From an uncultured Candidatus Saccharibacteria bacterium (lineage in GTDB: Bacteria > Patescibacteriota > Saccharimonadia > Saccharimonadales > UBA10212), in NCBI GenBank assembly GCA_964460855.1, contig CAYWQH010000005.1, positions 2,504-66,503 of the forward strand: a DNA stretch of 64,000 nucleotides, in the 5' to 3' direction. The notes under the pieces are model-generated. The model was given only the letters and a program-made list of their open reading frames with translations, had not been told where the DNA came from and did no database searches. Every line of letters begins with the position of its first letter. Positions within the stretch are counted from its first letter, which is position 1. Both the position numbers and the translations under genes were made by a program. This document shows positions 1,613 to 51,185 of this stretch, in pieces.

Positions 1613-1641
1613 TTGACTATTATGTGCTTATGTTGTATTAT
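1613..1641 (+). promoter_or_regulatory. sigma70-like promoter of GC-rich island 1
   Basis: TTGACT (1613-1618), 17 bp spacer, TATTAT (1636-1641), in AT-rich DNA directly before the GC-rich block. Confidence 0.5.
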
Positions 1642-1760
1642 AACTTTGAATCACCCCGCGTGATGGCCGCCCTGCGACTCAGAGGCGGCAGCGAGCTCGG
1701 TCGCATACCGAGTAGTCGTGTCGGATTCCCCGACACGCAGCCGACCCGCAAGGAGGTACG

Positions 1761-1877
1761 ATGCACCACGCCGACCAGCGCGGCTCGCCGAAGCCGGTGA
1801 GCCACCCGAAACAGTGGACGCATTCGATGACGTGCGCGACGCCGTTCGACGGCGCTCTCCAGACCGACTCGACCTGA
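1761..1877 (+). CDS. Small ORF (38 codons) in GC-rich island 1, unknown function
   Basis: AGGAGG at 1751-1756, 4 nt before the ATG. 35 of 38 third-codon positions are G/C by hand count. Peptide MHHADQRGSPKPVSHPKQWTHSMTCATPFDGALQTDST. Below the ORF-track size cut-off. The same frame stays open and moderately GC3-rich after the TGA. Confidence 0.3.
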   Translation: MHHADQRGSPKPVSHPKQWTHSMTCATPFDGALQTDST

Positions 1878-1973
1878 ACCGCCGGCGCCGCCGGCCGAGC
1901 CAGCAGTGAACACCCTCCACTGAACCAAGTGGACTCACCAACGTTCATTGCCCCCGGCCGGCTGCACAACCAA

Positions 1974-2033
1974 GCGCCCCCCGTCACTTCGACGGGGGGC
2001 GCGCCCCTAACTTAGCCCAACAGGGCTTTTTTT
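1974..2033 (+). terminator. Tandem hairpins ending island 1
   Basis: Perfect 12-bp stem gcgccccccgtc/gacggggggcgc (1974-1985 / 1991-2002). It is followed by gccc-aaca-gggc (2015-2026) and a T7 run (2027-2033). Confidence 0.6.
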
Positions 2034-2034
2034 A

Positions 2035-3129
2035 TTAATAAATGAAGTAGTAGCCGCCCAAGGCGCTAGCGGGTATAACCCGGGTGCTGGTAACGCCCCA
2101 GCCCACGGTGTTCATTTCGGATACTTTAAAACTGCCGTCTGGGAATACTGCTTCTACATAAGCTACATGGCCGAAGTAATCGTGGGGCACGCTCCAGGCT
2201 ACGGCGCCTACTTGCGGCGTCGGGCCGGTAGGCAATCCCGCCCGCTGGGCCAGGATCTTCCAGGTGCTGGCATTACCTAAGTTACTGGGTATCGGATGGC
2301 CGGTAGCCGCCCGCTTATAAGCCACATACCAAGTACAGTAGCCGTAATCATAACCATTGCTGCCGTAAATCGGCGAGTATCCGCCCCACGCAAAACCGGA
2401 GCCTATTGAGGCAACGGCACGGGGCGTAGGTACGGTACCGTTAGGGATCCAAACCTGGCCGCCAACCGGCAGCTGGCCGGATTCGGCGTCGTTAACCACT
2501 ACGAATAGGCCTTTGTCGGACTGGTATTTATTTACGATGCTATCAACCGTATCGCCCGATTTTACGGTGTATACGATGCCGTTAGCCGGGGGAATAAATA
2601 CGTCTTTGCCGGGGTCTATCTTATCTGTGGTCAGGTTTGTATTGGACCATTTAATACTTTGGACGCTAACGTTAAATTTGGCGGCCAAACTAGTAATAGT
2701 ATCGCCGTTTTGGGTGCGGTAGCGGATAATGTCTTTTTTAGACTTTTGGGTGGTGCTGACAATTTGGGGCTTGGCCACAATGCTGTCGTCGCTGGGCACG
2801 ATTGCCAGCTGGGCATTCTCGGAATCGGCCTGGTTGCGCACGGCGGTAGTTTCCGGTAAGTGTACCATTTGGGCCGTTTGCACGGCTATTTCGGCCGAAC
2901 TTAGTTGGTCTAGCGGGTTCTGGGTTTCGCTGAGCGATGCAACCGCCCCCTGAACGGAATTCTGGCGGACCGATTGGCTGGCCGAGCGGTTATTAAACAC
3001 AAAAAAGCCGACAACAAGCAGTAGCGTTATGTTGCCGATAACTAAGCTGGTTCGGATTAACCGGCGTTTGGAACGCTTTTTTAGCTTAGGCAGTGATGGG
3101 ACGCTTTTGCGCCCTTTAGTAAAATTCAT
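2035..3129 (-). CDS. Membrane-anchored LysM / CHAP peptidoglycan hydrolase
   Basis: 364 aa. N-terminal TM; two LysM-like repeats (YRTQNGDTITSLAAKFNVSVQSI, YTVKSGDTVDSIVNKY); C-terminal CHAP-like module (GYCTWYVAYK ... GHVAYVE). Confidence 0.8.
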   Translation of the reverse strand: MNFTKGRKSVPSLPKLKKRSKRRLIRTSLVIGNITLLLVVGFFVFNNRSASQSVRQNSVQGAVASLSETQNPLDQLSSAEIAVQTAQMVHLPETTAVRNQADSENAQLAIVPSDDSIVAKPQIVSTTQKSKKDIIRYRTQNGDTITSLAAKFNVSVQSIKWSNTNLTTDKIDPGKDVFIPPANGIVYTVKSGDTVDSIVNKYQSDKGLFVVVNDAESGQLPVGGQVWIPNGTVPTPRAVASIGSGFAWGGYSPIYGSNGYDYGYCTWYVAYKRAATGHPIPSNLGNASTWKILAQRAGLPTGPTPQVGAVAWSVPHDYFGHVAYVEAVFPDGSFKVSEMNTVGWGVTSTRVIPASALGGYYFIY

Positions 3130-3397: not shown

Positions 3398-4453
3398 TTA
3401 CTGACACAGTTCGTGGCAGTATTTAGCAACGGCCGCTTCGTGTTCGGCCTGGGTATGCGTAAAGTGGGTAACGCCGTCGTCGCCCGATACAAAGAACAAA
3501 TAGTCGGTGTTGGCCGGGTTGGCCACGGCTTCTAAAGAAGTGCTGGATATAGTGCCGATCGGGCCCGGCGGCAAGCCTTTGGCCGTATGGGTGTTGTACG
3601 GTGAATCGACCGTTAAGCTGCCCGGTTTGCCGGCCAGCACGCCGGCATAATAAGCCGTTACGTCCGAACCCAGCGGAATCCCCTGGCGCAGCCGGCTCAA
3701 AAATACCTGGGCGACAATCGGCCGGTCATTTATATTGGCTACTTCTTGTTCGACGATAGATGCCAAAGTTACGCACTGGTATATCGATAGCTTCTGGTTG
3801 GCGCAGCCAGCTTTAATATCGGGAGTCAGGTGTTTGTTCATTTCGGCCAGCGAAGCAGTAACTATCGTACTAAGCGGCGTGTCGTCGGCCTTGTCGTACG
3901 AATCGGGGTATAAAAAGCCTTCTAGCGTAGCCGTTTTGGGCAAATAAATCAGCGCCGGGCTGTTGGGGTAATTGGCCGGTTTGAGGGCTTCGTTTATTTG
4001 CTGCTGGCTAAAGCCGGCTTCTAGGAACTGCTTGTTGAGCTGGTCCGGCAGCCGCTTGCCGGGCAAAATGGTAAATAAATTGCGGGCTATGTCACCTTTA
4101 ACCATCTTATCTACTATCTCCTTGGTGCTCATGGCCGGGTCTAAAGTATAGGTACCCGCTATTAGTTTATCGCGGACTTCCTGGTCGCGGATGTACCACT
4201 CAAATGCTTTGGAACTGCGGATAAGTTTGGCGTTTTGTAAATTTTTGCCAATTTGCTTGGCGCTGGTGCCTTTTTCGACGGTGAAATATACGATTTTAGT
4301 GCTGTCGCTTACCGGCTGTAGGCTGTTTTCGTACTGGTGGCGGATAAACCAGGTAATTAACAAAAATGCCGCGCCCACCCCCACTAGGATAATGACGCCC
4401 ATGCTTAGTAACGGCCTTCGCCGTGAAGGCCGGCGGTTGAACCGGTATTTCAT
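3398..4453 (-). CDS. mltG: Endolytic murein transglycosylase MltG (YceG family)
   Basis: N-terminal TM; LASIVEQE, SDVTAYY, YNTH..GLPPGPI motifs. I chose the start at 4453 (MKYRFNRR) because it gives an ATGA overlap with the ruvX stop. The ORF track allows a start at 4471. Confidence 0.85.
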   Translation of the reverse strand: MKYRFNRRPSRRRPLLSMGVIILVGVGAAFLLITWFIRHQYENSLQPVSDSTKIVYFTVEKGTSAKQIGKNLQNAKLIRSSKAFEWYIRDQEVRDKLIAGTYTLDPAMSTKEIVDKMVKGDIARNLFTILPGKRLPDQLNKQFLEAGFSQQQINEALKPANYPNSPALIYLPKTATLEGFLYPDSYDKADDTPLSTIVTASLAEMNKHLTPDIKAGCANQKLSIYQCVTLASIVEQEVANINDRPIVAQVFLSRLRQGIPLGSDVTAYYAGVLAGKPGSLTVDSPYNTHTAKGLPPGPIGTISSTSLEAVANPANTDYLFFVSGDDGVTHFTHTQAEHEAAVAKYCHELCQ

Positions 4454-6592: not shown

Positions 6593-7899
6593 ACCCTAAG
6601 CATCCTATTGAGTTTATCTTTGACTTTAGACGGCTCATCGTCGGTTACCCCGGGCTGTTCGATGGTATCCATACCAACCCTTAGCAGGCCCATGGCCGTA
6701 ATATAGGTGTGGTCGCTGACATCGCCGGTGGCATCGGTAATGCCAACCACTTGGTCGGGGTTGATGTGCTGCACCAGCGGTTTGCGGGTAAAAGCCGCGT
6801 TGCGGTGCCAGTCACTTTCGCTTAATCGCCGCATTAATAAATCTAAGCTGGAGCCGCCGCCGCACAATAAAATATGGTTTGGCAGGTGGTCGAGTTTAGT
6901 GAACTCGCCCAGGGCTAGCTCTACGCCATGCATCCAAACTTTTAGGGTTTTATCGAGGGCTGTTTCGATGGTTTCAATTTTGTTATGCGGCACCCGATTA
7001 GTGCTGAGCCCCACTTTTAAAGCTTCGGCTTTGTCGAAATCGGTATCCAGTTCGCGCTCGATGCTGCGGGTAAAGGCCCGGCCGCCAATGCCGAACATTT
7101 TTGTGCCTTCCACGCCGCCTTCATTAACGATAGCGATGTCGGTTGTGCCGCCGCCGACGTCCATTAATATGGCGCTCATGTTTTGGTTGGGGTCGTTGCC
7201 GATTACCGAACGGGCCACGGCGAACGGTTCGGCCGCAACGGCCAATAACTCAAGGTCAAGCTCAGCAGCCGTTCGCTCCAGCGCCCCAATGTGGATCATC
7301 GGCGCGAATGCCGTATAAAGTTCGACTAAAACGTTTTTGCCCTGGAAGCCTACCGGGTTGGTGACTTTATATCCATCAATATCAATGCGGACCAAAGCGC
7401 TGTTAACCAGCCTAACCTCTACCTCTTTGCCGCCCAGCTCCCAGGCTAGCTCTTTGCGGGCGGTAGCTTCGGCTTTTTGCTGTACCAAGCCAATTATTTT
7501 TTGGACTTCGGCGATGTCTAATTCTTTGGTGGGGTTCTTACGGTTGAAACGGACCGTGGTTGTAGTGCCTTTAACCAGCTCACCGGCAATGCCGATAATT
7601 GCTGTTCGGGCGCTAACGCCAGCTTGCTGTTCGGCTTCGGTTAAAGCCCGGTCGCAATTTTGGACCACGCCGGCAATATCAGAAATAGCGCCGGCTTGCA
7701 TGTCGGTTAATTCCTGGTGCGCGCGGCCTACGCCAATAACTTCTACTTCGTCGCCCACTACTCGGCCAACCAGAGCTTTGACAAACTCGGTTCCGATATC
7801 CAGGGCAACCATGTATTTTTCGAGCGGCGCGCCGCCTTTGGCCTCGCCCTTGCCCGCGGGCAAATTCGAAGCCAATGATTTAACTTTTCCAAGAAGCAT
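6589..7899 (-). CDS. ftsA: Actin-fold ATPase, FtsA-like cell division protein
   Basis: 436 aa. ALDIGTEFVKALVG, DVGGGTTDIAIV and LCGGGS phosphate/adenosine motifs; short basic amphipathic C-terminus. Confidence 0.7.
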   Translation of the reverse strand: MLLGKVKSLASNLPAGKGEAKGGAPLEKYMVALDIGTEFVKALVGRVVGDEVEVIGVGRAHQELTDMQAGAISDIAGVVQNCDRALTEAEQQAGVSARTAIIGIAGELVKGTTTTVRFNRKNPTKELDIAEVQKIIGLVQQKAEATARKELAWELGGKEVEVRLVNSALVRIDIDGYKVTNPVGFQGKNVLVELYTAFAPMIHIGALERTAAELDLELLAVAAEPFAVARSVIGNDPNQNMSAILMDVGGGTTDIAIVNEGGVEGTKMFGIGGRAFTRSIERELDTDFDKAEALKVGLSTNRVPHNKIETIETALDKTLKVWMHGVELALGEFTKLDHLPNHILLCGGGSSLDLLMRRLSESDWHRNAAFTRKPLVQHINPDQVVGITDATGDVSDHTYITAMGLLRVGMDTIEQPGVTDDEPSKVKDKLNRMLRV

Positions 7900-7953
7900 A
7901 ATCAGATTAATTGTACCATAAGAAAGCCTGTAAATTGGCTGAATAGCTATTGA

Positions 7954-7982
7954 TTGACACCTTAATTTCCTTAAGGTAATAT
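7954..7982 (+). promoter_or_regulatory. sigma70-like promoter of cassette 2a with a spacer palindrome
   Basis: TTGACA (7954-7959), 17 bp, TAATAT (7977-7982). The spacer is the palindrome accttaa-tttcc-ttaaggt (7959-7977). Confidence 0.5.
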
Positions 7983-8014
7983 TTAGCGATTCGTTCCCGA
8001 CACAAGGAGGAGCA

Positions 8015-8263
8015 GTGCTCGCCGATACCAGTTTGGCGTTCCGTACCTACCGGATCTATGGCGAGATCCGGGCGGACGGCACCCACATCGGCACGATGTC
8101 CGCCTGCAACGGCTTGCATCACGCGCTCTGCCGAACGGAGCAGACGTGGCGCGATGGCCAGATCATCGGCGCTACGCCACTCGGCCTCGAGATTCTCGGT
8201 GGGTGCGATGGCAACTGCGCCGACGGCCTCACCCAGAATGGTGGCATCCGCTTCGCGCTGTGA
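8015..8263 (+). CDS. Small GC-rich ORF (82 aa), unknown function (cassette 2a)
   Basis: AAGGAGG at 8004-8010, GTG start at 8015. 68 of 82 third positions are G/C by hand count, clearly more than in the other frames. No family recognised. Confidence 0.55.
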   Translation: MLADTSLAFRTYRIYGEIRADGTHIGTMSACNGLHHALCRTEQTWRDGQIIGATPLGLEILGGCDGNCADGLTQNGGIRFAL

Positions 8264-8271
8264 CGAACGAC

Positions 8272-8295
8272 GGCCCCCGGCGAAAGCTGGGGGCC
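8272..8295 (+). terminator. GC hairpin after the cassette 2a ORF
   Basis: ggcccccggc-GAAA-gctgggggcc: 10-bp stem (one G-U pair) with a GNRA loop. No U-tract follows. Confidence 0.4.
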
Positions 8296-8332
8296 AAAAC
8301 ATTACCACCTCTGTTAAATAACAATAATATAC

Positions 8333-8361
8333 TTGACATTATTAAGCTTAAGCTGTATAAT
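8333..8361 (+). promoter_or_regulatory. sigma70 consensus promoter of cassette 2b
   Basis: TTGACA (8333-8338), 17 bp, TATAAT (8356-8361). The spacer contains the perfect 10-bp palindrome ttaagcttaa (8342-8351). Confidence 0.55.
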
Positions 8362-8484
8362 ATACCAGTTCAATCAAGAGGTTGGACGTACCTTAAGGCA
8401 AGAGAGTACCTCAGGCGTTCATTATTCAGTAAAGCGTTTTACTGCGTTATGAACGTCTGAAAACAACCGATCGAAAGGAAGATC

Positions 8485-23095: not shown

Positions 23096-23123
23096 CGCTC
23101 GCCATAAATTTTCAGCGACATTC

Positions 23124-23260
23124 GCAAACGATATTGAATTTTGACTAGCCAGGTGCCGCGCCGAAAAAATCCCTAAAGAGTCTTCTTCGCATTATTTAAG
23201 ATTGCTCAGAAGAGATTTTCGGCTTTACTCGGCAATATAAGTCAAAATTCATCTGTTTGC
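23124..23260. repeat. Long imperfect nested palindrome downstream of 22106..23095
   Basis: Nested arms: gcaaac/gtttgc (23124-23129 / 23255-23260), gaattttgact/agtcaaaattc (23136-23146 / 23240-23250), gccgaaaa/ttttcggc (23160-23167 / 23216-23223), tcttct/agaaga inside. Confidence 0.5.
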
Positions 23261-23359
23261 TCGAGCCGCTTCGAATCTTAGGGCTCGCTTTACTAAAGAA
23301 GGGTGGCTCACGTCCGGTGGGAAATCGGCGGTTCGCATTGCTCAACCACTGATATAGCA

Positions 23360-23388
23360 TTGCTATATTCTTTTAATTATTGTATTAT
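23360..23388 (+). promoter_or_regulatory. sigma70-like promoter of cassette C
   Basis: TTGCTA (23360-23365), 17 bp, TATTAT (23383-23388). Confidence 0.5.
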
Positions 23389-23422
23389 ATGTTATTCGGC
23401 AGTACCGAAACCCCTGGAGGGA

Positions 23423-23731
23423 ATGGTGGGTACGAATTCGAACGGAAAGACTTTGCAGGAACTGAACACTGAGTACCTGCGCTGGGAAAAGATCCGCAAG
23501 TACGGCATTATCGTACACGCGATAACTGTGTGGTCCTTCATCACGATCATCTTCATTCTGGGCGCCGCGCTGCATGTGGTGAACGCCAACGGCTTCCTCC
23601 ATTCGCCCATCATGAACTTCTATGTAGTGGTGGCGCTCGGGAGCCTGGCGATGGTACTCGTGGCGAATCACAGGAGACTCGACGTCAAGAAGAAGTTCGA
23701 GAGCCGCCGCGGAAGGATCACCAGTGTGTGA
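23423..23731 (+). CDS. Small 2-TM membrane protein (102 aa), unknown function (cassette C)
   Basis: SD ctggaggg, ATG at 23423. MVGTNSNGKTLQELNTEYLRWEKIRKYG, then helices IIVHAITVWSFITIIFILGAAL and FYVVVALGSLAMVLVA, then a basic tail. GC3-rich. Confidence 0.6.
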   Translation: MVGTNSNGKTLQELNTEYLRWEKIRKYGIIVHAITVWSFITIIFILGAALHVVNANGFLHSPIMNFYVVVALGSLAMVLVANHRRLDVKKKFESRRGRITSV

Positions 23732-23745
23732 AGCTGGCCGCGCTA

Positions 23746-23774
23746 GGGTGAGGGCGAACATGCGGCCCTCACCC
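23746..23774 (+). terminator. GC hairpin after the cassette C ORF
   Basis: gggtgagggc (23746-23755) / gccctcaccc (23765-23774): perfect 10-bp stem. Confidence 0.5.
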
Positions 23775-23803
23775 GCCCACCGGTACTGCCGAATTTTTAT
23801 AAT

Positions 23804-36070: not shown

Positions 36071-36499
36071 CTATATTGCTTTAGCTAACCTTTTGGCATG
36101 GGCAGCTAAATCGGCTTTAACAACTCTTGAAGAATCAATAATAACTACTTCTACCGCTCCACTAACCGCATTATGTCCAAAGGCACCTAAAGAATCATGG
36201 GTGCGCATAATTTGAGTTGGCGCTTCGCCTAAAGGCGAATCATCAATTTCCATATGCGGCGCTAAGCCGTCTTCAATATTCAGCCAAACTAACGGTGAGC
36301 CAACATACGTATATTCATTTGGTGCTTGATGGCCGTCGCGCGGAGAAACTATTTTCTGGATAAATTCTACTTTAACGAAAATCCCGAACAGTTTGCGGGC
36401 ATCATCTTCAAGTAATTCTTCAGGGGTTAAAAGCCGTTCGTCCTGGGTTTGCGGCAAGGCTGATTCGGTAGACTGTATTGATTCGATTATTTGGTTCAT
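36071..36499 (-). CDS. Hypothetical protein (AT-richer gene)
   Basis: Start trimmed to MNQIIESIQ (ATG at 36497-36499). The longer ORF-track version runs into the cassette D1 tail. Confidence 0.5.
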   Translation of the reverse strand: MNQIIESIQSTESALPQTQDERLLTPEELLEDDARKLFGIFVKVEFIQKIVSPRDGHQAPNEYTYVGSPLVWLNIEDGLAPHMEIDDSPLGEAPTQIMRTHDSLGAFGHNAVSGAVEVVIIDSSRVVKADLAAHAKRLAKAI

Positions 36500-36514
36500 A
36501 AACTTATTGGAGTT

Positions 36515-36918
36515 TTGGGAGGAAGTTTTTCGGGCGGGGGCCAGGCAATCGCTAAATCGCCCGGCCCCGTTGCCCATCCGCTACTGGCAGTGCACCGGCG
36601 TGACGTGCCAGCCGATGTCATCCAGGATGGCGTTGACATTGAGCACGTCGCCAAACAGGTCACGGACGTACTCCACGAACCTGTCGGCCTTGAAGTATTC
36701 GATTCCGCTGTGCTCTTTGTGGCCGTGGCCGTAGTCGAGCACATGGTATGCGACTTGCTCCAGGATCTGGTAAAGCTCCTGGTTGTCGCAGACCAGCTCG
36801 AGCTCTTGGCGGATGCCGCGAGCGGCATCGGTCCTGCCGAGCTTGACGGCGTCTTCCAGTTTGACGCCTAGCGTCACGGCTTGTTGTTGGTCACAAACCA
36901 TCAAGGGCTTCCTCCCAA
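36515..36918. repeat. 11-bp perfect inverted repeat bracketing cassette D1; the 3-prime arm is an anti-SD
   Basis: ttgggaggaag (36515-36525) and cttcctcccaa (36908-36918). On the minus-strand mRNA the 5-prime arm UUGGGAGGAAG contains the SD. The 3-prime arm lies just after the hairpin at 36537-36568. Confidence 0.75.
36581..36901 (-). CDS. Small acidic GC-rich ORF (106 aa), unknown function (cassette D1)
   Basis: GGGAGGA SD, ATG at 36899-36901. MVCDQQQAVTLGVKLEDAVKLGRTDAARGIRQELELV... No family recognised. Confidence 0.55.
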   Translation of the reverse strand: MVCDQQQAVTLGVKLEDAVKLGRTDAARGIRQELELVCDNQELYQILEQVAYHVLDYGHGHKEHSGIEYFKADRFVEYVRDLFGDVLNVNAILDDIGWHVTPVHCQ

Positions 36919-37013
36919 GTTGTAATGTGCTCCGTCCACGTTATTGCGGACAGAACCGGGTACTCAAATCTCTTCATTTCCCCGCCAAGAGATTTGTATT
37001 TAAATCCACTGGC

Positions 37014-37196
37014 CAGAAAACGAAAACCGGACTGTTGTAGCCCGGTTCTCTGTTTTTCTAATTTTTGATTGGCTTGGCGATATTTTTCGGAACTACAACT
37101 AAAGTGCTCGCCTAAGGAGCACAGTATTGATAATTCCAATCTTTTCCCGCGTAAAAGCCATGTATTTTTTATAACGCAGCGGGGCTCTCGGGTCAA
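37014..37196 (-). promoter_or_regulatory. Promoter plus about 150-nt AT-rich leader/sRNA ending in an intrinsic terminator, upstream of D1
   Basis: Minus strand: TTGACC (37191-37196), 17 bp, TATAAA (37168-37173). Hairpin aaccgg/ccggtt (37025-37047) followed by UUCGUUUUCU. The upstream segment aGTTGTAG can pair with the terminator loop CTACAAC. Confidence 0.4.
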
Positions 37197-37245
37197 TAGT
37201 AAAGTTACAAAACGTTAGTGTTTTGTGTATAAGTCTGAGTTAATT

Positions 37246-37678
37246 TCCGCAAGTACCCGGGCTGCCAGCGGCGCGGTCGTCCATGACCGCGCCGCCAGTT
37301 GGCAGTTCAGCGAGCAGCTGTGAAGGGCACGAGCGTCTCGGGCTGCGACAGCGCGAGTAGCAGGTAGTACGGGTTCACGCCGTCTTCGTACTGGTCCTTG
37401 ATGGACTGCAGCTCGTCGAGCTCGCGGCACGCCTGCGGGTAGCGGTGCATGTCGTCGGTAACGACGTGCACGTGCGGCGACTCAGCGGCCGTCTTGGTGA
37501 ACATCGCGAACTGGTCGATCTCCCGCCGCGTGGCGGTGATCTGGTCTTCCAGCCTCGACACGAAGTCCTCGCGAGCGAAATTTCCGGTTCGCGGGTCCTC
37601 AGCATCGAGCAGGTCAGCCAGCTGCTGATGCGCGTCCTGCGTCACTGGTTCTCCTTCTGTTCGAGGGGTACTTGCGGA
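37246..37678. repeat. 13-bp perfect inverted repeat bracketing cassette D2
   Basis: tccgcaagtaccc (37246-37258) and gggtacttgcgga (37666-37678) are exact reverse complements. The 5-prime arm lies about 10 nt upstream of the SD on the minus-strand mRNA. Confidence 0.8.
37307..37645 (-). CDS. Small acidic GC-rich ORF (112 aa), unknown function (cassette D2)
   Basis: GAAGGAGA SD, GTG start at 37643-37645. MTQDAHQQLADLLDAEDPRTGNFAREDF... Followed by an 11-bp GC hairpin (37268-37295). Confidence 0.55.
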   Translation of the reverse strand: MTQDAHQQLADLLDAEDPRTGNFAREDFVSRLEDQITATRREIDQFAMFTKTAAESPHVHVVTDDMHRYPQACRELDELQSIKDQYEDGVNPYYLLLALSQPETLVPFTAAR

Positions 37679-50783: not shown

Positions 50784-51185
50784 TGGTGGAGCTGGCGAGT
50801 TTGAGCCCGCGTCCGCTTGGTAACTTCTCCGATGCCTACAGGTTTATACCGTTTAGGTGTTTCTTTGCCGAACAAACGGTGAACGGTCAAAAGCAAGTCC
50901 AGCGCAGTCCTAAAGTCTTATCCGACTAGAACGGACCGTTCCAGTACGGGGCAACCAAATAAATATGGCACCAGCGAAAGCCTATTTGGCGTCAGCGTGC
51001 TGATGGCAGCTTAAATAATTAAGCTACAGCTGCGGCTTGGCGCCCGGCGAGAACAGAGTTCACGCTAGCAACAAAGTCGCTAACTTTGGTTTTGGCAATT
51101 AAAGCCTGTGCACCAGCTAACGTGTAGTGCAAACCGACCTGCCATGCGGAGATGTTAAGGTCCAACCGTCAAATTAGTCAGCCCC
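50784..51185 (-). ncRNA. ssrA: tmRNA (SsrA)
   Basis: 5-prime GGGGCUGA. 3-prime GGACGCGGGCUCAAACUCGCCAGCUCCACCA (T-arm plus acceptor with the G3-U pair). Internal tag frame 51019..51096: GCC resume codon to UAA, AKTKVSDFVASVNSVLAGRQAAAVA. Confidence 0.9.

Follow-up and report, generated by a model that had tools for sequence, protein, structure and literature searches.

An 11-nucleotide complement to its own Shine-Dalgarno sequence lies behind a G+C-rich orphan cassette in a Saccharimonadales genome and may mask translation initiation

The window analysed here (the whole 64 kb stretch of contig CAYWQH010000005.1, from an uncultured Candidatus Saccharibacteria bacterium) contains a small minus-strand cassette, D1, in which the Shine-Dalgarno (SD) sequence of an orphan open reading frame (ORF) has an exact complement behind that same ORF. 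The two complementary boxes are called the 5′ arm (purine box) and the 3′ arm (pyrimidine box), and the helix that they could form across the ORF is called the clamp. The neighbours in the window are housekeeping genes (MetRS, trehalase, TatD, ATP synthase, AlaRS, FtsA, and Obg), and relatives of the MetRS, at 61–69% identity, place the window in Saccharimonadales. The features of D1 and its surroundings, in the direction of the minus strand, are as follows.

37022..37050, minus strand: intrinsic terminator that ends the preceding unit and bounds the D1 module upstream; conserved in relatives
36919..37015, minus strand: D1 leader, a shortened homologue of the leader conserved at the shared site in relatives
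36908..36918, minus strand: 5′ arm (purine box) UUGGGAGGAAG, which holds the D1 SD and aligns with the purine box ending the conserved leader in relatives
36581..36901, minus strand: D1 ORF, 106 amino acids (aa), acidic, orphan, predicted helical bundle; stop codon 36583-36581
36537..36568, minus strand: G+C-rich post-ORF hairpin, 14-bp stem with three G.U pairs
36515..36525, minus strand: 3′ arm (pyrimidine box, anti-SD) CUUCCUCCCAA, exact complement of the 5′ arm
36071..36499, minus strand: next ORF after D1, 142 aa, orphan, host-like G+C

The 5′ arm TTGGGAGGAAG (36918..36908, minus strand) contained the SD of the 106-aa ORF, and its exact reverse complement CTTCCTCCCAA was located at 36525..36515 on the same strand. 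All 11 of 11 positions can form Watson-Crick pairs, covering GGGAGG, and the pair (inverted repeat I13) represents the sole two exact copies of the 11-mer in the window. The GGAGG core of the SD (36915-36911) lies 9 nucleotides (nt) before the ATG at 36901. An in-frame TTG at 36904 is an additional possible start, and the minus-strand sequence around the SD and start reads ...acaacTTGGGAGGAAGcccttgATGgtt... The original prediction, which had reported an exact 11-nt anti-SD in D1, was correct in coordinates and complementarity, and the post-ORF hairpin that it placed just before the complement is present at 36537-36568, 11 nt ahead of the 3′ arm (spacer cgcccgaaaaa). Its description of the complement as a 3′ tail fitted less well. 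Inspection of the sequence showed no T-run after the hairpin nor after the 3′ arm, and the terminator scan called no terminator between the D1 ORF and the 3′ arm, including at the hairpin. The 142-aa ORF, which has no SD, starts 16 nt past the arm. The complement is therefore probably no transcript end and may be an intercistronic element; the 142-aa ORF is probably co-transcribed or leaderless.

The D1 protein showed a pI of 4.9, with 18 D+E and 9 K+R residues. The G+C contents of the three codon positions (GC1/2/3) were 0.70/0.27/0.79, compared with 0.54/0.43/0.57 in long host genes, as expected of a real gene from a G+C-rich background. The D1 protein and that of D2, a sibling cassette described below, matched only themselves among 5.8 billion protein clusters. 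A HMMER scan of D1 against 1.84 billion representatives gave only two weak repeat-protein matches (E = 2e-5 and 3e-4), and the Pfam content of these was uninformative. The ORF was rightly described as encoding a 106-aa acidic protein with GC-rich codon usage, and no credible homologue was found. A single-sequence structure model of D1 predicted a confident five-helix soluble bundle (predicted local distance difference test score, pLDDT, of 83), and no significant match of this model to PDB folds was obtained (best E = 0.36). Pfam and PHROGs yielded no significant family for any cassette protein; the only sub-threshold match among them was MFS_1_like for the protein of another sibling, C3 (16.9 bits, cut-off 25.2).

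In the predicted ensemble, the D1 arms paired with probabilities of 0.8-1.0. The mean unpaired probability of the SD arm was predicted as 0.67 if the RNA was cut before the 3′ arm and 0.03 in the full-length RNA. The proposal that a downstream anti-SD can mask its own SD gains support from this predicted loss of accessibility and from pairing that is conserved and co-varying in 13 other genomes, as described below. Chance was considered at two levels. Perfect inverted repeats of at least 11 nt with arms 100-1000 nt apart numbered 28 in the window and 16.5 ± 4 in Markov shuffles. In a scan of 1,611 ORFs (window and related loci), the region −30..+3 around each start was compared with the 120 nt after the stop. 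The original prediction had stated that finding many such pairs would weaken the case; they proved few, with a complement of at least 11 nt in 2 of the 1,611 ORFs and D1 at the top, compared with 1 ORF in the mismatched control. SD/anti-SD pairing is therefore no widespread trait among these genomes. Taken alone, the D1 pair has a chance expectation of ~0.05 per window (per-gene background ~1 in 1,000), so its significance derives from recurrence and co-variation and not from the 11-mer alone.

The same arrangement was observed at a chromosomal site shared by 14 Saccharimonadales genomes. The neighbourhood there has the order terminator, leader, cassette, 56-aa membrane gene, trehalase, often a NUDIX gene, and MetRS. 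The 13 further distinct genomes were obtained from MetRS loci, from the metagenome contig L099, and from contexts of membrane-gene homologues; a leader-pattern scan of metagenomes returned 114 loci, among which only L099 had a true leader. In all 13 genomes the leader ended in a purine box, followed by one or two unrelated, mostly G+C-rich ORFs ending in a hairpin, and a complementary pyrimidine box lay just before the membrane gene, giving 6-14 bp. The ORFs enclosed in these other genomes were unrelated and encoded 53-150 aa. The purine boxes and paired lengths are listed below.

Window, D1: purine box TTGGGAGGAAG, 11 paired
L025: purine box AGGAAAGAGAG, 11 paired
L029: purine box GGAAAGAGAGAGG, 13 paired
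L037: purine box GGGAGAGGG, 9 paired, then G.U and G-C
L011: purine box GAGGGAG, 7 paired, then G.U and A-U
L099: purine box AGAGGGAGGA, 10 paired
L006: purine box GGGAGG, 6 paired
L023: purine box AGGGAGAAGA, 10 paired
L199: purine box AGGGAGGC, 8 paired
L200: purine box CAGAGGGAGGAA, 12 paired
L202: purine box AACAGAGGGAG, 11 paired
L207: purine box GGAGGAGCG, 9 paired
L208: purine box GGAAAAGAGAGGA, 13 paired
L212: purine box TTAAGAGAGAGGAA, 14 paired

In nine genomes out of 14 (D1, L037, L011, L099, L006, L199, L200, L202, and L207), the purine box was at the same time the SD of the first ORF. The leader of ten genomes (L025, L029, L037, L011, L099, L199, L200, L207, L208, and L212) opened with a 16-bp hairpin whose loop ..AAGCACCAAAGU.. 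is conserved and which contains five co-varying pairs and numerous G.U pairs. This conserved hairpin stood ~120-165 nt before the purine box, with variable hairpins after it, and no Rfam family matched it. The conserved leader might sense a signal that controls the clamp. On alignment, the shorter D1 leader retained the GGCGGGG motif, the hairpin CCGCAAUAACGUGG (36936-36949), and ACAAC just 5′ of the purine box; the features common to D1 and the leaders of relatives were GGCGGGG, a CCGCAAU..CGYGG hairpin, and ACAAC before the box. A terminator matching that at 37022..37050 also preceded the leader in L099, L006, and L200.

As all boxes are purine- or pyrimidine-rich, complementarity within each genome was compared with that between genomes. 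The measure was the longest perfect complement between the 1.15 kb upstream (0.65 kb for L099) and the genome's own 70-nt tail. The own-genome sum over the 14 genomes was 149, compared with 119.9 ± 4.5 (maximum 138) for mismatched pairs, and none of 7,364 derangements reached 149. The sequence of the boxes thus varies among genomes yet matches within each. In L025, L029, L037, and L099, the arm pair was the longest complement between the leader and everything downstream. The flanks of the helix are both A/C-rich and unable to pair with each other, so the helix ends abruptly.

Comparison of close strains showed the arms to be part of the cassette. The membrane protein is identical in L207 and L208 and their flanks share 93-98% identity, yet the cassettes differ. 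Their homology stops within the leader and resumes 17 nt before the membrane-gene ATG. The exchanged block measures ~550-600 nt and both arms lie inside it, which indicates that the arms travel with the cassette and are not marks of a recombination site. The identical 56-aa membrane protein (P0031) stood behind three cassettes, of 141 aa (L207/L210), 108 aa (L208/L209), and 97 aa (L211). The cassette is therefore exchanged between very close strains.

Three further cassettes of the window, D2, C3, and C4, followed one order: near-consensus promoter or −10-like box, 5′ arm, SD, one or two small G+C-rich ORFs, hairpin, and 3′ arm. Their arms were all perfect (13, 14, and 14 nt) and differed in sequence among cassettes, and the spacer from hairpin to 3′ arm was 3-6 nt. 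The D2 promoter was TTGACA-16-TATAGT at 37756-37729. The remaining features are given below.

37666..37678, minus strand: D2 5′ arm UCCGCAAGUACCC, 13 nt, repeat I5; ends 8 nt before the SD AAGGAG
37307..37645, minus strand: D2 ORF, 112 aa, GTG start, acidic, orphan
37246..37258, minus strand: D2 3′ arm, 13 nt; 3 nt past the post-ORF hairpin 37262-37305
23394..23407, plus strand: C3 5′ arm AUUCGGCAGUACCG, 14 nt; directly after a −10-like box, 8 nt before the SD
23423-23731, plus strand: C3 ORF, a 102-aa membrane ORF inside the C3 arms
23781..23794, plus strand: C3 3′ arm, 14 nt; 6 nt past the hairpin 23746-23774, with a T-run after the arm
8393..8406, plus strand: C4 5′ arm UUAAGGCAAGAGAG, 14 nt; downstream of the promoter TTGACA-17-TATAAT (8334-8370)
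8485-8730 and 8760-9044, plus strand: C4 ORFs, two small membrane ORFs inside the arms
9086..9099, plus strand: C4 3′ arm, 14 nt; 5 nt past the hairpin 9053-9080

The folding energy of the neighbouring 60 nt on the inner side was used to rank the 115 perfect inverted repeats of at least 10 nt. Ranks 1-3 went to the three longest (−40.0, −35.5, and −28.4 kcal/mol) and D1 took rank 5 (−27.2 kcal/mol); only ~1% of 60-nt windows fold as well as the top-ranked repeat interiors. In the full cassette RNAs of D1, D2, C3, and C4, most arm positions were predicted to pair at a probability near 1. A scan of duplex energy between hairpin tails and upstream sequence gave a result indistinguishable from the control; it was uninformative because large internal loops were permitted.

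From these results, all of them computational, the complementarity is real, recurrent in sibling cassettes, conserved, co-varying, and cassette-borne. The 11-nt pair is best explained as the closing helix of a clamped cassette mRNA, with SD self-masking as the best-supported mechanism for D1, and we give this reading a probability of about 0.55. We infer that both arms lie on one transcript and that the helix forms in vivo and lowers translation or stability. The D1 module would comprise the leader, the purine box, the G+C-rich orphan ORF, the stable hairpin, and the pyrimidine box. In the nascent RNA the purine box would be free to act as SD, so that ribosomes could load. The pyrimidine box would be made ~390 nt later and would complete an 11-bp helix, which would loop the whole cistron and bury the SD. 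Finished transcripts would then be poorly translated and, by analogy with tested cases, probably more prone to decay. The net effect would be a cis-acting brake on a variable, probably acquired gene. Such pairing appears to be selected for here, as the anti-SD is conserved and co-varying and such words are depleted from native genes (PMC12697547).

Several observations weigh against this reading. The 5′ arms of D2, C3, and C4 do not cover the SD of the main ORF, and neither do those at 5 of the 14 shared sites, where a separate SD farther downstream serves the main ORF. For this reason SD masking may be one use of a more general closing helix, and, given these uncovered SDs, the selected function may be something other than SD masking. 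For the clamps that leave the SD uncovered (D2, C3, C4, and the five sites), a role in stability or processing is, by analogy, equally plausible. Two further G+C-rich promoter-ORF-hairpin units of the window, C5 (~1640-2040) and C6 (~7950-8300), have no long arms, so the clamp is frequent among G+C-rich units and not universal. The promoter scan found no strong promoter for D1. Box composition lifts the background complementarity, and some cross-genome pairs reach 10-13 nt. Finally, a perfect predicted helix of 11-14 bp pairs almost automatically, and its prediction is silent on kinetics in vivo.

A related explanation accepts the helix as a real RNA structure and assigns its main job to RNA stability or processing, through exonuclease protection or RNase III trimming, with the overlap of the D1 SD being incidental. 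We regard this as a serious alternative, though as less likely than SD masking. The positions of the arms fit it, with the SD or start codon lying 8 nt (D2 and C3), ~78 nt (C4), or 80-230 nt (L025 and L029) farther downstream. For C3, a 5′ arm directly after the −10-like box and a T-run after the 3′ arm would mean that the ends of the transcript pair. The stable hairpin, always just inside the 3′ arm, could stop 3′ exonucleases after cleavage. Helices of 11-14 bp are, however, short for classical RNase III substrates. The identity of the box with the first-ORF SD in nine genomes is also more than would be expected of an incidental overlap, and a D1-type 5′ arm stands behind a leader of ~70-150 nt, hence not at the 5′ end. 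A precedent for the stability role is hbs of Bacillus subtilis, in which pairing between the 5′ and 3′ untranslated regions (UTRs) governs RNase access (PMC5737220). If the repeats acted instead as DNA, they could be a split host palindrome, terminal repeats of mobile cassettes, or sites of an invertible segment. The arms are perfect with abrupt ends and cassette-specific, as expected of split host hairpins, and G+C-rich orphan cassettes occupy sites that vary among relatives. Nevertheless, we consider the DNA-level explanation improbable. The promoters lie outside the arms in D2, C3, and C4, so these arms are transcribed, and in L207/L208 the arms lie within the exchanged block and away from its borders. 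The arm contexts showed no target-site duplications, and relatives without the C3 cassette showed no hairpin built of the C3 arms at the site. Four independent Logan assemblies carried D1 in the same orientation; all four were identical to the window and thus provided no within-population variation. No inverted cassette copies were found, and a Pfam scan of 26 window ORFs, which took in all large ORFs within ~7 kb of D1, revealed no recombinase or integrase. The wobble pairs depend on the strand: the helices of L037 and L011 are lengthened by a sense-strand G.U pair and the Watson-Crick pairs after it, and the D1 hairpin gains 8 kcal/mol in stability on the sense strand (−27.5 kcal/mol) over the antisense strand (−19.4 kcal/mol), with the C4 and C6 hairpins behaving alike. 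This strand bias of the wobble pairs points to sense RNA.

The original prediction had compared D1 with hok-type fold-back inhibition, and a hok-like type I toxin-antitoxin locus with a fold-back-inert mRNA activated by 3′ trimming would indeed show long-distance 5′-3′ pairing hiding the translation start, the hallmark of hok and aapA1 (PMC9841398, PMC6733600) that D1 shares. That comparison did not hold in other respects, and such a locus has a very low probability here. A toxin of this type is small (~30-60 aa) and hydrophobic, whereas D1 encodes an acidic protein of 106 aa with a predicted fold as a soluble helical bundle. The consensus scan found no plus-strand promoter for an antisense RNA at 36500-37000, where a weak or non-sigma-70 promoter is possible. 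Moreover, the D1 arm is not at a demonstrable 3′ end, and the same clamp type encloses unrelated ORFs of 53-150 aa elsewhere. A coincidence between a purine-rich SD and a pyrimidine-rich stretch is just as improbable. The background of ~0.05 per window for a complement of at least 11 nt and the 28 inverted repeats of 11 nt or more show that such matches do arise; they leave unexplained three sibling cassettes that share the layout with longer arms, and a pairing conserved and co-varying at the same site in 13 other genomes.

Other candidates for the identity of the cassettes were rejected. An inverton did not fit the single orientation in four assemblies, the lack of a recombinase nearby, and arms that differ between cassettes. 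For an integron gene cassette, no R″/L″-L′/R′ boxes (RYYYAAC ... GTTRRRY) flanking the hairpin were recognised by eye and no integrase was present among the 26 ORFs scanned. Insertion into terminator loops was set aside, since a T-run after the 3′ arm is confined to C3, with a partial one in L099 and L025. The element in L019 was an ordinary insertion sequence (IS), unrelated to the cassette family.

Returning to SD masking by the D1 clamp, the closest known mechanism is that of icaR in Staphylococcus aureus, where pairing of a 3′-UTR anti-SD with the SD prevents initiation and generates an RNase III site; the motif is 7 nt (UCCCCUG) in the long 3′ UTR of one regulator gene (PMC3868564). D1 likewise has a pyrimidine-rich downstream anti-SD that could pair across the cistron with its own SD, known here from sequence alone. 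The D1 helix would be 11 bp, perfect, and 11 nt after the terminal hairpin, compared with 7 nt in icaR. In addition, the D1 clamp sits in a swappable cassette with a conserved leader, recurs at several loci, and shifts in sequence while remaining complementary. By analogy, D1 would represent an icaR-type mechanism rather than a hok-type one, as a likeness of mechanism and not as a homologous family. In B. subtilis, translation and RNA level both fall when the ribosome-binding site pairs with anti-SD-like 8-mers hundreds of nt farther along the RNA, and anti-SD-like sequences are depleted from native genes (PMC12697547). The D1-type anti-SD differs from these depleted words, as it is conserved and co-varies with its partner; depletion of anti-SD-like words was not visible in a sample as small as the 64 kb window.

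For the sibling clamps that leave the SD uncovered, the UTR-UTR pairing of hbs offers a model. This pairing concerns a single housekeeping gene, for which no cassette family or co-variation at a variable locus has been described. In hok/Sok and aapA1/IsoA1, a long-distance 5′-3′ interaction keeps the full-length mRNA inert (PMC9841398, PMC6733600). The resemblance of D1 to these is looser than that to icaR: the clamp ORFs are diverse, mostly acidic and soluble, the consensus scan called no antisense promoter, and nothing indicates activation by 3′ trimming. With phage morons and integron cassettes, the units share small, compositionally foreign genes of unknown function at variable sites, and with morons also the self-contained arrangement of promoter, ORF, and hairpin. 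They differ from both in that the clamp repeats are inverted, cassette-specific, and transcribed, and from integron cassettes in the lack of attC-type R/L boxes (read by eye) and of an integrase nearby.

To our knowledge, only a handful of tested cases of UTR-UTR pairing within one bacterial mRNA exist. What is new here is a perfect helix at several loci, tied to swappable orphan cassettes and a conserved leader RNA, and co-varying across a lineage of the Candidate Phyla Radiation (CPR). If the reading is true, ORF-spanning helices would be a regular design element of Saccharibacteria gene expression, they would provide a sequence signature for locating the variable cassettes of these epibionts, which are hard to culture, and naturally occurring compensatory variants would be at hand for testing. 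A broader proposal is that Saccharimonadales carry an undescribed class of clamped G+C-rich orphan cassettes, swapped as modules at a fixed hotspot behind a structured leader RNA, with the clamp silencing genes, possibly related to host interaction or defence, until a leader-acting signal opens the helix. We offer it as speculation that is unlikely to hold in full.

Minor observations were also made on the remaining units. C5 (window 1640-2040, plus strand), a very G+C-rich unit, has a promoter TTGACT-17-TATTAT, a long structured 5′ region, a 38-aa ORF (1761-1877, GC3 0.92), and a G+C hairpin, with a further hairpin and T-run as a separate terminator; instead of a gene, C5 may be a non-coding RNA. 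C6 (window 7950-8300, plus strand), directly upstream of C4, has a promoter TTGACA-17-TAATAT, an SD AAGGAGG, and a GTG-started orphan ORF of 82 aa (8015-8263, GC3 0.83), followed by a G+C hairpin and then only a weak anti-SD-like tract CCACCUCU. Just upstream of C3, a perfect 12-nt inverted repeat TGAATTTTGACT (window 23135-23146 / 23240-23250) surrounds 93 nt. The stretch 23100-23800 is missing from the intergenic site between atpC and a bactofilin-like gene in most relatives. The D2 and C3 arms resemble each other (T.CG..AGTACC), and 11 nt of the D2 arm (TCCGCAAGTAC) reappear within the C3 ORF at window 23493-23503, which may be chance (~3%).

At the shared site in L037, L025, L029, and L011, the membrane gene behind the cassette lacked an SD, and its start codon followed an extended −10 box (TGnTAT..T) at a distance of only 6-7 nt. 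The proximity of the box and the absence of an SD suggest a leaderless membrane-gene mRNA starting right after the pyrimidine box. The boxes were found at these positions.

L037, ~2585-2607: extended −10 box before the membrane gene
L025, ~1565-1589: extended −10 box before the membrane gene
L029, ~7240-7263: extended −10 box before the membrane gene
L011, ~3705-3722: extended −10 box before the membrane gene

In the contigs L208 and L209 alone, a 526-aa serine recombinase (Pfam Resolvase; positions 1-239) ends ~1.7 kb upstream of the cassette; no link between this recombinase and the cassette was established. A dispersed conserved element of ~100 nt, with the core ..GGCGCATTACGGCGTCAGCGGCTCC..GTATGTTAAATACAGCTC..CTTCCTTGTACTGCATCC, occurred in several Saccharimonadales intergenic sites (window 13671-13741, minus strand; L037 4182-4326, 14628-14714, and 1779-1850; L207 4008-4150; L208 1756-1846; L013 8277-8376). 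A perfect 12-nt inverted repeat specific to the locus closes the element in L037. Rfam gave no match to this element, which could represent a small RNA gene or else a miniature mobile element.

Rfam matched only the transfer-messenger RNA (tmRNA) in the window, with sub-threshold hairpin matches around D1, D2, and the L099 leader. The tmRNA gene lies at window 50784-51185 on the minus strand (RF00023, 78.9 bits) and was not reported by ARAGORN. Two independent assemblies (L002 and L004) end or diverge at ~36325-36327, inside the 142-aa ORF, which hints at a strain-level variant or a repeat boundary. Between D2 and D1, a possible small transcription unit was observed on the minus strand (window 37100-37200), in which a promoter-like TTGACC-17-TATAAA (~37196-37168) is followed after ~50-130 nt by the hairpin terminators 37122-37104 and 37050-37022; its product could be a small RNA or a peptide of 20 aa.

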